A stretch of 64,000 bases of DNA from an uncultured Dehalococcoidia bacterium (GCA_964394975.1 CAYMZR010000001.1:12-64011); one strand, 5' to 3'. Numbered from the stretch's first letter, positions 52,309 to 56,157 are shown. Notes: generated from the sequence alone by a model not told the origin. Program-made: numbers and translations.

Positions 52309-55300
52309 ATGCCTAAATGTGAGAATTGTGGTTATAGCACAGACAAAGAAGGCAAATTTTGTGTCAAGTGTGGAAGTTCTTTTACTCCACAACATTTACC
52401 GAATATGGAGTCGGAGATATCTGAACCAAAGGAAGAAAGCCTTCAGGAGACCTTTGGCCAAGGGAATGTCTGTGAAAGTTGCGGACATCAGAATTCTCAC
52501 GAAAACAATTACTGCACCAGTTGCGGCAAAGATCTCAATATTGTTTCGGAAGTACCATCCAAGGATGAAATCAACACAGAGAACGCCAGTCTGGAGAAAA
52601 CGCTCTTAGAACTAGAGCATCTTAGGTTTTCACTTTCCCAGATTGAGAATCCCAAAGACTTACTGTCTCGTCAATTCGTTTCAAGGCTGGAATTACGAAA
52701 AGCAATATTACTTGAAAACCTTGAAAGGATTATCGAATCTCAACCTGTGGAGAAAAAGGAATCATCGCTTCGATATTTTTTTGATCAGGTAGTAGCGGTG
52801 TCCCGCGATCAAGGTAACGAAACGTCTGAGTCAGATCTCTATTCCATTGCTGCCTCACTCGGAATGGACATGCCAGGGAGCGAAGCTCGCACACAGTTAG
52901 AAGTTTTTAGTAAATCGACTGCAGCAAAAGATGATGTGTCAAAATTTCACACTTCCTCTAATGTGGTTTCAAGTGGCCAAATTGCCGACGTTCATTACTC
53001 CAACGAACGAAAAGGTTACTTTAGTTGGACCGGTCTCTGGACAACCTTATATTCTGAAAATGCGATGTCGTCCTTTTTGGGCTTCGGTATACTCCTCATT
53101 ACAATCAGTTCTCTGGTGCTACTGGTTAATTATTGGTCTAATGAGGACATGAGATTAGTCCTTATGGGACTTGCTTTTGTCCAAATGGCGGCCTTTATTG
53201 GAGCAGGTCACCTAGTAAAAGAACAAGTAGGTCTGCATTTTTCAGGATTGGCTCTCATAACAATAGGATCGGTATGGAGTCTTTTTGCAGCTGGCATCAT
53301 TACATACCTTCTATTCGACCCTCTCGGCACCGAGCCAAAAATTCCCGGAATAGGATTGGAAATAAACCTCAGCCCTATTGCATGGTTAGTTGTATCTGGT
53401 ATCGGGACACCTGTCTGGGGAATATTGGCATATAAATATAGAGGCTATGTTTTAGCCCACGGGTTCATAGCACTCAGTGGTATCACAATTTTTCTCGCTA
53501 TAGCCTCTTTCGGTCAAAATTGGCAGATATGGAAATGGGCTGTCAGCCCTCTTTCTATCTATGCTCTAGCTCTCCTTTATTTAAGGGAATCCATAGATAC
53601 GTCTGACAGGAGGAGTTTAAAGCATCCACTTGTATGGTCATCCTTTTTCATAGGGTTATTACCCCTTATTATTCTGGGGCTTTCCTATTTGGAAAATCCT
53701 AATCAACATAATGGTCCCCTAGCTCTTTGCTTTTTGATCACCGCACTCTCGTCACTAGATGCAATACGGCACACTGGTCTTCGTTGGTTGGAACATTTCT
53801 CAGCTCTTATATTGCCTCTTGCAATTGTTCTGGCAGTTCCTGAATTCAACATTAAAGCCGAAACATATATCCCGTTAATTTTGATATCTATCTCTTTAAT
53901 CTACGGTTTGGTAGGAACCAGAATTAGATTAAGTCCACCTACTCGGGTAGAAGAAAACTGGCCCATTTTAAAGCCTTGGTTTGCAATATCCTTCATATTA
54001 ATTTTTGCAATTCCGTTGATAGAATCGGCGGCGATATGGAGTAAAACAGTAAGTATGCTGATTGCTACTATATTGACAGCAACACTAGCACAAATGTGGA
54101 AAAGACCACCCCTGCCATGGTTACCGATAATCCCTCTTACTTTGACCATGGCATACACCATCAATTTAATGCCAGGTCAAATTTCAGATCTGTTCTCTGT
54201 ACAGGGAATGTGTTCCCCAGATTCGGGAATTTATCCTTTGGATTGCCTGCAAATCCCGCTTGCACCCGCGATCATGTCTCTCTTTGGATTCATATCATTG
54301 GTTTTCCTGTGGTTTGCCAAGACAAAAACGGTTTCCTCTCACCCAATAACACTGTGGTCCATAACATTCACCTTGATTTCAGCCCTGTGGGCTCTTCTAT
54401 ATTCTAGTCCGGGTATCAGTCTAACCTTCATATCTCCAGCCGTCCTAATGGTCGCAGTCATAGTGATTTGCTCACTCTCGATAATTGTTGTTCTCACCTT
54501 GACACCCTGGTTCCAGGAAATGTGGACCTCTGCAAAAGTCGAAATAAATAACTACTTGATCACTCGGCCGTCGGAACCTGAGTTTTGCTTTAATTGCGAT
54601 AACCCTCTAGAAGATAGCGTTCACGTACCCGTAGGTGAAGATATATTTTGCACAAATTGCGGGCACAAGAACCAATTAGCTACACACACCGATGGCGAAA
54701 ATTGGCAACAAAAATTTGTGAATGCTGCATTATCAATCAAATTTCTCAGGAGTGTTTCTCTATTCTTAATTTTAATAATCCTTCCCATCTGGACAATTGC
54801 GATATTGGGGTATGTTGTACAAATTTCACAGACATTCCATGCCTACGCAACTACAGTGTGGTGGGGCTTCACCGCCATATATACATTTGGGCTTGCCAAG
54901 TACAAAAAGCCCATCTGGTTATACTCAGGAAGTATCGCAATACATCTAGCTCTCATCACATTAATTAGTCTTCCTACATTGGAACTAAGTACCAATCAAA
55001 TCGGATTAATAGTTTCAATCTCTTCCCTTTTCTACTTGGGAATCATAGGAGTTTGCTACAAATATCAAGAATGGAGCCATGATTATTCGCCAAAAACAAA
55101 GCAATATATATTTTTACCCTTGCTAGTAAGCGCTGGTATTGACGGCATAGTTGGATTAATACTCTCAGGCTGGAATGACTGGGGAAACTGGGAAGGGCTC
55201 ACAGTAACAATTATCTACTTAGCCATATCGATAACAGTTGCTCAGATTTCAAAATATCGATTCGTACCTTACGCCACTATGGGATTAGTTCTAACCTTCA

Positions 55301-56157
55301 ACATTTTCGTTGTTGGGTTAATCGGGGGAAGCTGGCCTGCAAGGGCCACAGGTTGGGCATTACAAGGTTTGGCATTCTGGTGGATTGCCAAAGGAATCGT
55401 GTTTATTTCAAAGGATGGGATTAAATATGACTTAAGTTTATGGGTAAATCCGTTAGAGAACTCTTCGACAAGAACGGCCATATTTGCTGGAGCCTTTGCA
55501 TTCATAACACTGGCAGCAAAAATACTTGGAATAGGAACATTCGACGCGGACCTGATTGTTCCGACCTCAGTAATCGCGATATTAGGTTTCTTATATCTCG
55601 GAAAAGCCATCACCGAAAGGAATGTATTATCTGGTTATTTGGCAGCTGCAGCTCTTCTATTTAGCTGGTATATTCAATTAATTGAACGAGACCTATCACA
55701 GATTGAAATACAGCTTTACACAATACCGGCCGGATTATATTTACTGTCCCTAGGTTATTTGGAAAACCGTAGAAAAATCTTAACCTACAAACTGGCTATG
55801 GCCTGCAACATACTTGGGGTCATAATATTGGGCGGGTCGGCATTTATACAATCCATAATAGCTTCCAACGGAACGGAACTTATTTTTGTACTATTGGCTG
55901 GATTTGAAGGAATGCTTTTAACTATTTGGGGAATCTTTTCCAAATCAAAAATTTCTTTCACAGCAGGAGTCTTAACATTTGTAATCAACATTTTTTATCA
56001 GGCCACTTCACTCCTTTCAGGAACTGACGGGGCCATCATCGGGATTATATCGGGATTATTCATAATCACTCTGGTGATCATAATTGAACGAGCCAAAAAT
56101 CATCTTATCGCAAGAGGCCAAAAATTCTTAGTTTTTGTAAACGATTGGGATTGGTAA
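52309..56157 (+). CDS. Giant polytopic membrane protein with three zinc-ribbon motifs (function unknown)
   Basis: CENCGYSTDKEGKFCVKCG, CESCGHQNSHENNYCTSCG, a ~180-aa soluble segment, a block of many TM helices, an internal CFNCDNPLEDSVHVPVGEDIFCTNCG (from ~54580), then a second TM block. By eye about 30 hydrophobic segments. Confidence 0.8.
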   Translation: MPKCENCGYSTDKEGKFCVKCGSSFTPQHLPNMESEISEPKEESLQETFGQGNVCESCGHQNSHENNYCTSCGKDLNIVSEVPSKDEINTENASLEKTLLELEHLRFSLSQIENPKDLLSRQFVSRLELRKAILLENLERIIESQPVEKKESSLRYFFDQVVAVSRDQGNETSESDLYSIAASLGMDMPGSEARTQLEVFSKSTAAKDDVSKFHTSSNVVSSGQIADVHYSNERKGYFSWTGLWTTLYSENAMSSFLGFGILLITISSLVLLVNYWSNEDMRLVLMGLAFVQMAAFIGAGHLVKEQVGLHFSGLALITIGSVWSLFAAGIITYLLFDPLGTEPKIPGIGLEINLSPIAWLVVSGIGTPVWGILAYKYRGYVLAHGFIALSGITIFLAIASFGQNWQIWKWAVSPLSIYALALLYLRESIDTSDRRSLKHPLVWSSFFIGLLPLIILGLSYLENPNQHNGPLALCFLITALSSLDAIRHTGLRWLEHFSALILPLAIVLAVPEFNIKAETYIPLILISISLIYGLVGTRIRLSPPTRVEENWPILKPWFAISFILIFAIPLIESAAIWSKTVSMLIATILTATLAQMWKRPPLPWLPIIPLTLTMAYTINLMPGQISDLFSVQGMCSPDSGIYPLDCLQIPLAPAIMSLFGFISLVFLWFAKTKTVSSHPITLWSITFTLISALWALLYSSPGISLTFISPAVLMVAVIVICSLSIIVVLTLTPWFQEMWTSAKVEINNYLITRPSEPEFCFNCDNPLEDSVHVPVGEDIFCTNCGHKNQLATHTDGENWQQKFVNAALSIKFLRSVSLFLILIILPIWTIAILGYVVQISQTFHAYATTVWWGFTAIYTFGLAKYKKPIWLYSGSIAIHLALITLISLPTLELSTNQIGLIVSISSLFYLGIIGVCYKYQEWSHDYSPKTKQYIFLPLLVSAGIDGIVGLILSGWNDWGNWEGLTVTIIYLAISITVAQISKYRFVPYATMGLVLTFNIFVVGLIGGSWPARATGWALQGLAFWWIAKGIVFISKDGIKYDLSLWVNPLENSSTRTAIFAGAFAFITLAAKILGIGTFDADLIVPTSVIAILGFLYLGKAITERNVLSGYLAAAALLFSWYIQLIERDLSQIEIQLYTIPAGLYLLSLGYLENRRKILTYKLAMACNILGVIILGGSAFIQSIIASNGTELIFVLLAGFEGMLLTIWGIFSKSKISFTAGVLTFVINIFYQATSLLSGTDGAIIGIISGLFIITLVIIIERAKNHLIARGQKFLVFVNDWDW

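Follow-up and report, generated by a model that had tools for sequence, protein, structure and literature searches.

The 64,000-nucleotide stretch analysed here (GCA_964394975.1, CAYMZR010000001.1:12-64011; hereafter the window) comes from an uncultured Dehalococcoidia bacterium and carries the gene of a giant polytopic membrane protein of 1282 amino acids (aa). The protein is well supported as a divergent member, from the marine SAR202 lineage of Chloroflexota, of a large uncharacterised family in which a cytoplasmic head is followed by a conserved start module, a variable membrane-embedded middle and a conserved end module. We regard this identity, together with the architecture described below, as very probable. 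The account as a whole, in which family membership is joined to a role as a scaffold or sensor, appears probable on balance, and the mechanism taken by itself is offered tentatively. The gene had been recognised in a first-pass annotation made from the sequence alone, and the coordinates and length given there proved exact.

Placement in a family of giant membrane proteins

The first-pass annotation could not place the protein. When the full-length sequence was scanned against Pfam and NCBIfam, only aa 4-76 matched and the other ~1200 residues did not; a sequence search of the PDB with the membrane part gave no match, and word-indexed homologue searches returned near relatives only. An exhaustive HMMER search of 1.84 billion proteins with the membrane part returned 343 cluster representatives at E<=1e-3, with 222 at E<=1e-10. 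The C-terminal 452 aa match the NCBIfam model NF047321 (SCO7613_CTERM) with 29.3 bits (E 5.9e-7, model positions 4-174 of 188). Six of the relatives (P0061, P0072, P0054, P0101, P0015 and P0090) score 47-88 bits on this model, above its cutoff of 45 bits, and a profile derived from the window protein matches the same six at E ~1e-20 (E 4.3e-4 for P0015). All of the diverse C-terminal modules compared with NF047321 match it (15/15). Judged by these profile matches, the protein can be placed after all, in the Chloroflexota branch of a SCO7613_CTERM-related family. It is not a new kind of protein, because NCBIfam already recognises the family as a domain of unknown function, and it is best described as a divergent variant that scores below the threshold and carries an additional ribbon inserted internally. 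Existing annotation did not supply four features that are taken up below, namely the repeat architecture, a motif confined to Chloroflexota, a fold with no analogue in the PDB, and an operon that includes a PrsW-type protease.

The distribution of the branch was examined by scanning DNA, one genome for each GTDB species, with a degenerate motif encoding Q-x-Y-[AT]-I-P-A-G-L-Y-L. All 55 hits fall in Chloroflexota, namely in Anaerolineae, Caldilineae, Ardenticatenia, Chloroflexia, Dehalococcoidia and SAR202. Closer to the window protein are six full-length orthologues (55-73% identity) from marine metagenomes and Chloroflexota metagenome-assembled genomes (MAGs), and the nearest genome match to the window is a SAR202 MAG with 74.6% identity. 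The recorded gene call (P0001, 1250 aa) takes M33 as its start and so lacks the first zinc ribbon (window 52309-52404). We take the longer open reading frame (ORF), with its start at 52309, to be the right one, because the orthologues keep an N-terminal MPxC (MPxCxxCG from residue 1); an AAGGA motif upstream of this ATG also supports it.

A further close relative is found in an uncultured Dehalococcoidia MAG (L036, 825-4041). It matches aa 1-470 and aa 730-1282 at 68-80% identity, with the two parts in different reading frames and ~120 nucleotides between them, and it apparently lacks ~260 aa, or ~2 repeat units. A frameshifted pseudogene, a variant that has lost units and an artefact of assembly are all conceivable explanations.

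Modular plan and membrane topology

Domain mapping across members of 880-2776 aa gives a common plan: the start module lies directly after the head (profile positions 8-93 and beyond), the middle varies, and the end module lies at the C-terminus (profile positions about 850-1052). The start module, which has a conserved outer loop FDP..IPGIGLEINL, recurs immediately behind the cytoplasmic head in relatives between 880 and 2250 aa long, and wherever a mapped member has its C-terminus intact, the end module is found at its very end. Ribbon-first heads (CxxC..CxxC, usually at residue 3) are found in 30 of 40 complete members; other heads carry TPR or HEAT repeats. Among the orthologues of the window protein, identity is 80-91% in the start module and 69-86% in the end module, and 31-59% in the head and ribbon loop. 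Pfam DUF2157 (PF09925) matches the start module in 4 of 25 relatives at E<=0.01. In P0015 the match covers aa 170-239, corresponding to window-protein aa ~243 onward, at 24.3 bits, below the gathering score of 32.4 bits. Neither the window protein nor its N-terminal membrane block gives a DUF2157 hit, so the protein is not counted as a member.

The first-pass annotation had described two dense runs of hydrophobic helices, and these stood up well. Kyte-Doolittle analysis gives 24 strong hydrophobic peaks, and alignment-averaged hydropathy together with AlphaFold secondary structure resolves 16 + 16 transmembrane (TM) helices split by an 80-residue loop. Loops rich in Lys and Arg alternate with loops poor in these residues, which puts both termini and the ribbon loop on the cytoplasmic side.

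An array of four-helix units

The two membrane blocks were compared by hhalign. With the six close orthologues only, the probability was 0.3%, a result superseded by deep profiles built from 30 sequences for the N-block (aa 237-620) and 45 sequences for the C-block (aa 831-1282). The deep profiles align in several different registers, with a probability of 96.5% (E 9e-10, score 79.7). Self-alignment of each block gives matches at offsets of ~113-125 residues, with scores of ~54 and probabilities of 86-89%. Controls fall within 17-24, with reversed profiles at ~23 and an unrelated polytopic family (PrsW) at 17. At the level of profile comparison, the membrane part is an ancient array of ~120-residue four-helix units, with ~8 such units predicted in the window protein. 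BLAST self-comparison of relatives of 2000-2800 aa revealed no recent internal duplications.

The first-pass annotation had hinted at a different origin, namely internal duplication of a unit made up of a ribbon and a polytopic block. In its full form, as tandem duplication (or fusion) of a unit consisting of a zinc ribbon and a block of ~16 TM helices, this idea would make the two halves paralogous. The layout is indeed bipartite, with a ribbon ahead of each 16-TM block, and the blocks are distantly homologous at profile level. The membrane part is nevertheless a repeat array rather than a twofold copy, because the similarity occurs in several shifted registers and also within each block at ~120-aa offsets. 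The protein is thus internally repetitive, as had been suspected, but the repeating unit is the ~120-aa four-helix module and not a ribbon-plus-16-TM half. Close and distant relatives speak against a half-duplication as well. The N- and C-terminal parts of P0008, P0009 and P0016 (881 aa), P0010 (917 aa), P0018 (1137 aa) and the SAR202 loci L017, L026 and L013 align with the window protein, but these shorter relatives (880-1170 aa) lack roughly aa 411-866, 710-847 or 636-834, and the third ribbon falls inside the missing segment. Moreover, the region after the third ribbon is unlike the start module that follows the head ribbons. No free-standing gene for a ribbon with a C-block was found; short matches to the C-block only are contig-end fragments without ribbons, and the candidates for a stand-alone N-block protein are likewise contig-end fragments.

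A tetrapeptide YLEN, present once in each block at residues 460 and 1150, had been read as a further hint of duplication. The two copies exist, but as a marker of duplication the pair was rejected. The blocks share 10 tetrapeptides, against 8.3 +/- 3.1 in shuffled sequences, and the first copy is not conserved, being SYWEN, SYIYN or SYLNN in orthologues. The second copy lies in the family motif Q-x-Y-[AT]-I-P-A-G-L-Y-L-L-x-x-G-Y-x-E-x-R-R (IPAGLYLLxLGYxExRR). Chance is therefore the better explanation of the pair, and the half-duplication scenario, largely refuted by the evidence above, is now very unlikely.

Zinc ribbons at the cytoplasmic face

The ribbons and the soluble stretch of the first-pass annotation were all confirmed. 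A 10-residue spacer separates the paired CxxC motifs at residues 4/18 and likewise at 55/69; a further pair is found at 760/781, in the 80-residue loop between the TM blocks. The head is assigned to the double-ribbon proteins by Pfam DZR (PF12773; 36.6 bits over aa 4-73, cutoff 27.3) and matches Zn_Ribbon_1 (PF13240; 27.5 bits), aa 4-76 being above the gathering scores of both models; metal binding is predicted. The closest solved relatives of the ribbon segment are zinc-ribbon regions of ArnA entry 5a8i and of 8s05_C (E 0.002). The third ribbon, scanned alone, gives sub-threshold matches to Zn_Ribbon_1 and DZR. All 12 Cys residues are invariant in the six orthologues, although the head and ribbon loop around them are only 31-59% identical. 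The soluble stretch after the head ribbons, about 175 residues long, evolves quickly: identity among orthologues is 31-58% over aa 77-235, compared with 80-91% for the module that follows, and aa 77-249 have no Pfam or PDB match.

The third ribbon appears to have a history of its own. Among the 40 complete members, an internal ribbon in a TM loop occurs only in the window clade and, independently, in P0022. It is absent from P0008, P0010, P0018, L017, L026 and L013. Because it is so restricted, and because relatives lack both the middle segment and the ribbon, the third ribbon is, on this comparative evidence, a late and clade-specific insertion.

Structural model and conserved polar residues

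The AlphaFold2 (AF2) model of aa 831-1282, based on a 115-sequence alignment, has a predicted local distance difference test score (pLDDT) of 91.4 and a predicted TM-score (pTM) of 0.82, and consists of 16 long helices and a terminal cytoplasmic helix. The model of aa 230-1282, based on 10 sequences, is unusable (pLDDT 49). A Foldseek search with the C-terminal half against all solved PDB chains to April 2026 gave no hit at E<=1e-3. The closest neighbours are soluble TPR proteins, 14-3-3 proteins and the designed helical repeats 5cwn and 6e9v, the last two with a probability of 0.95 and a target-normalised TM-score of 0.47-0.48. All of these neighbours have E values of 0.1 or worse, and no membrane proteins are among the matches listed.

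Across 138 sequences, the end module conserves W1045, G1093, Y1110, Q1135, Y1137, P1140, Y1144, E1152, Q1181, E1200, G1208, G1220, G1249, E1260 and W1280. According to the predicted topology, Q1135, Y1137, Q1181 and S1182 would lie near the outer leaflet and E1200 in mid-membrane. Such residues could form the substrate or ion site of a transporter, flippase or lipid-linked glycan enzyme (of the GT-C, O-antigen polymerase/ligase or SEDS-like kind) that has diverged too far for sequence models to recognise it. The conservation of E1200, Q1181, Q1135, Y1144 and E1260 in 73-99% of the 138 relatives and the high constraint on the TM caps agree with this idea. However, no match to such families was obtained in Pfam, NCBIfam or the PDB sequence search, and the Foldseek matches listed for the C-terminal half, none at E<=1e-3, are all soluble helical-repeat proteins. 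No large periplasmic loop that could be catalytic is present, the outer loops being very short, and TM helix numbers differ about three-fold between family members, which would be unusual for a fixed catalytic or transport fold. We therefore consider a transporter or enzyme improbable. This agrees with the earlier observation that the protein carries no transporter, glycosyltransferase or peptidase signature, which holds for Pfam, NCBIfam, the PDB sequence search and Foldseek.

Periodicity and size also invite comparison with mechanosensitive channels. Piezo blades are built of four-TM repeat units, and the ~120-aa four-helix periodicity of the window protein formally resembles them, a resemblance only. 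The four-helix units could act as a tension lever and the end module, with its conserved polar residues, could form a pore on oligomerisation of this very large protein. Yet the Foldseek search of the PDB listed neither Piezo nor any other channel, the sequences are not similar, and a variable number of units argues against a tuned lever. A Piezo-like device is accordingly very unlikely.

Genes downstream in relatives

The surroundings of the gene were surveyed in 29 genome loci with at least 2.5 kb of sequence 3´ of the giant gene. One or more tail genes follow in 22 of these, on the same strand, directly 3´ and often overlapping the stop codon. They encode a PrsW-family intramembrane metalloprotease, a ~185-aa protein or a small TM protein with a HEAT-like C-terminal tail, and the PrsW-like gene itself is present in 17 of the 29 loci. 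The association follows lineage: tail genes are found in 22/23 loci outside SAR202, compared with 0/6 SAR202/Dehalococcoidia loci. Among the ORFs of the window, phmmer gave no hits to the PrsW-like, ~185-aa or small TM partners.

In L010-L062, from Anaerolineae, Caldilineae and Chloroflexia, a recurrent tail of three genes is seen 3´ of the giant gene. The first encodes the small TM protein, which ends in the HEAT-like motif (roughly FRxG..R..A...L..LGxVE) and in some loci is fused to a large N-terminal repeat region. The second encodes the PrsW-like protease, sometimes with a ~170-aa C-terminal extension, and the third the ~185-aa protein, which has an N-terminal hydrophobic segment. Functional annotation of the three genes yields the PrsW Pfam hit only.

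The adjacent kinase gene

In the window, the membrane protein gene lies between the gene of a Hanks-type Ser/Thr kinase, on the same strand and 120 bp away (Table 1), and that of an enolase-superfamily (MR_MLE) dehydratase. This arrangement suggests that the membrane protein might be a partner, substrate or sensor of the 1454-aa kinase, the two genes forming a signalling or defence cassette. A kinase or its C-terminal domain is upstream in five SAR202/Dehalococcoidia loci (L001, L002, L017, L026 and L056), and the kinase domain scores up to 301 bits on the PADLOC PD-T4-6 models, which we treat only as a lead. When window 47824-57408 was compared with L001-L003, L013, L017, L026, L040 and L056, the SAR202/Dehalococcoidia loci proved syntenic across the whole region. 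The MR_MLE dehydratase (89-94%), a metallophosphoesterase (77%) and an acyl-CoA dehydrogenase (74-79%) are well conserved among the SAR202 relatives, whereas the membrane protein is only 40-56% identical and the kinase gene, in the same block, is rearranged, replaced or ~45% identical. As far as such identities can tell, the pair is a fast-evolving spot in a conserved backbone, which fits the idea of a cassette.

Because synteny extends over the whole region, however, finding the two genes side by side in these loci does not count as separate evidence that they are coupled. L002 and L003 carry a different and shorter kinase gene, separated from the membrane protein gene by an alpha/beta-hydrolase gene. 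No kinase is found beside P0008, P0010, P0012 or P0018, the genes around more distant relatives are unrelated, and a comparison of 23 loci showed no conserved upstream gene. The PD-T4-6 models are generic for Hanks kinases, and the membrane protein itself gave no match to the PADLOC defence-system models. A link to Ser/Thr kinases, raised in the first-pass annotation, is thus unsupported beyond the SAR202 loci, and a kinase cassette seems unlikely. The kinase also contains a PGF-pre-PGF-like stretch (aa 423-513, 41 bits).

Table 1. Features of the membrane protein gene and the adjacent kinase gene (nucleotide positions in the window)
Feature	Position	Strand	Remarks
Hanks-type Ser/Thr kinase gene, 1454 aa, one TM segment (~aa 301-323)	47824..52188	+	Pkinase 196 bits
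Giant polytopic membrane protein gene, complete ORF	52309..56157	+	1282 aa + stop, ATG start
Zinc ribbon 1 (C4, C7, C18, C21), cytoplasmic	52318..52371	+	Pfam DZR; Cys invariant in orthologues
Zinc ribbon 2 (C55, C58, C69, C72), cytoplasmic	52471..52524	+	Pfam Zn_Ribbon_1 27.5 bits, aa 55-76; Cys invariant
Soluble, fast-evolving cytoplasmic linker/head, aa 77-249	52537..53055	+	Ends in conserved LYSENAMSS just before TM1
Conserved start module, aa 236-420, TM1-6	53014..53568	+	Motifs LYSENAMSS, VGHLVKE; distantly DUF2157-like
TM block 1, aa 250-730, 16 predicted TM helices	53056..54498	+	Read as four ~120-aa four-helix units; basis: hydropathy, positive-inside analysis, AF2 secondary structure, self-alignment offset ~125 residues (probability 89%)
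YLEN no. 1, aa 460-463	53686..53697	+	Unconserved, chance match
Cytoplasmic loop, aa 733-812, with zinc ribbon 3 (C760, C763, C781, C784; nucleotides 54586-54660)	54505..54744	+	
TM block 2, aa 813-1261, 16 TM helices	54745..56091	+	Read as four four-helix units; basis: AF2 model aa 831-1282, self-alignment offset ~113 residues (probability 86%)
Conserved end module, aa 1041-1282	55429..56154	+	aa 1088-1263 match SCO7613_CTERM; extreme C-terminus in relatives
YLEN no. 2, aa 1150-1153	55756..55767	+	Within family motif, cytoplasmic end of TM helix

Two other places in the window deserve mention. At 47152-47661, near-coextensive ORFs lie on opposite strands (169 aa, minus; 160 aa, plus), and the 169-aa minus-strand ORF is the one called in L001, at 90% identity. 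At 38246-39888, a 1.5-kb stretch containing only small ORFs, among them a 116-aa Cys-rich ORF on the minus strand (39339-39689), lies between tRNA-Gly(CCC) (minus strand) and tRNA-Ile(GAT) (plus strand). The tRNA-Ile(GAT) gene is often found inside rRNA operons; no rRNA was found between the tRNAs at 38.2-39.9 kb.

A possible scaffold or sensor

How might such a protein work? The reading we prefer is that the window protein is neither an enzyme nor a classical transporter. It has two head ribbons followed by ~8 units (32 TM helices), and its N-terminus, mid-loop and C-terminus are predicted to lie in the cytoplasm. The units would form a membrane-embedded, solenoid-like array of helical hairpins, and the constrained caps may hold a polar site facing the outer leaflet (Q1135, Y1137, Q1181 and S1182, with E1200 in mid-membrane). 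The array would display fast-evolving zinc-ribbon modules at the inner membrane face, where the ribbons would bind protein or nucleic acid. The window clade gained an extra TM segment whose cytoplasmic loop carries the third ribbon. In most Chloroflexota outside SAR202 the gene shares an operon with those of a PrsW-type intramembrane metalloprotease and of two small proteins, membrane-bound or exported, which suggests a module for envelope signalling or quality control that is linked to proteolysis. The SAR202 version lacks these neighbours; it may act on its own, or its partners may be encoded elsewhere. This mechanism, a scaffold or sensor displaying ribbons and paired with a PrsW-type protease in most of the wider family, is possible but should be regarded as doubtful.

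Several observations weigh against this account. The window protein does not reach the 45-bit cutoff of SCO7613_CTERM, and a full-length scan gives no hit to the model at E<=0.1. To carry the PrsW link over to the window protein is an extrapolation, as the protease is absent from 6/6 SAR202/Dehalococcoidia loci and from the window. The N-terminal half is modelled only at pLDDT 49, such that it could still harbour a catalytic or transport fold. For the solenoid-like character we can point only to the Foldseek neighbours of a predicted structure, the spacing of the repeats and the freedom with which unit number varies. Finally, the conserved intramembrane polar residues E1200, Q1181 and Q1135 would fit an ion- or substrate-binding transport site as well.

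In a wider perspective, and more speculatively, the family may represent an undescribed class of integral-membrane solenoids, open-ended in length (~20 to >60 helices), capped at both ends and, in Chloroflexota, working with a PrsW-type protease as an envelope scaffold or signalling system, with the SAR202 version as a fast-evolving, stand-alone derivative with extra ribbons. If this is true, a set of some of the largest bacterial membrane proteins (to ~2800 residues), found throughout the phylum, would obey a simple rule of head, start cap, n units and end cap, and the confidently modelled half would have a fold without a solved analogue, of interest to membrane-protein structural biology. 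It would also provide a handle on the SCO7613_CTERM and DUF2157 families, and the PrsW operon in Anaerolineae, Caldilineae and Chloroflexia would offer a testable envelope-signalling hypothesis for the little-studied Chloroflexota. SAR202 is an abundant deep-ocean lineage, and there the gene is among the fastest-evolving in an otherwise conserved neighbourhood, which hints at lineage-specific adaptation. The single gene in the window matters less when taken alone, being one divergent member with an extra ribbon.

Comparison with known systems

DZR and Zn_Ribbon_1 are generic domains, and their presence says nothing about the 1000-residue membrane part. A more specific analogy, and an analogy only, is with PrsW and RsiW of B. 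subtilis, in which a PrsW-family protease is encoded with, or acts on, a membrane protein whose cytoplasmic N-terminal domain binds zinc. RsiW is a single-pass protein with an HxxxCxxC anti-sigma domain. The likeness lies in the PrsW-like genes directly 3´ of family members in 17 of 29 loci. Unlike RsiW, the window protein has CxxC..CxxC ribbons and 32 TM helices, with no His four residues before the Cys pair, and it does not belong to the zinc-binding anti-sigma (ZAS) proteins; its neighbours are the kinase and the dehydratase, no sigma factor gene lies next to it, and a PrsW gene is absent from the window.

The closest structural neighbours of the C-terminal half model, alpha-solenoids and designed repeats, would fit a linear stack of helical hairpins. 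These neighbours are soluble and unrelated in sequence, whereas the hairpins of the window protein are hydrophobic and predicted to span the membrane. DUF2157 (PF09925), a predicted membrane protein family, is similar only via the start module of some relatives. NF047321, the "SCO7613 C-terminal domain-containing membrane protein", is named after Streptomyces coelicolor SCO7613, and its domain of unknown function lies at the far C-terminal end of a very large protein with many membrane passes, as in the window protein. The branch represented in the window differs in having its own motif, Q-x-Y-[AT]-IPAGLYLL, and in carrying two head ribbons and an internal ribbon.

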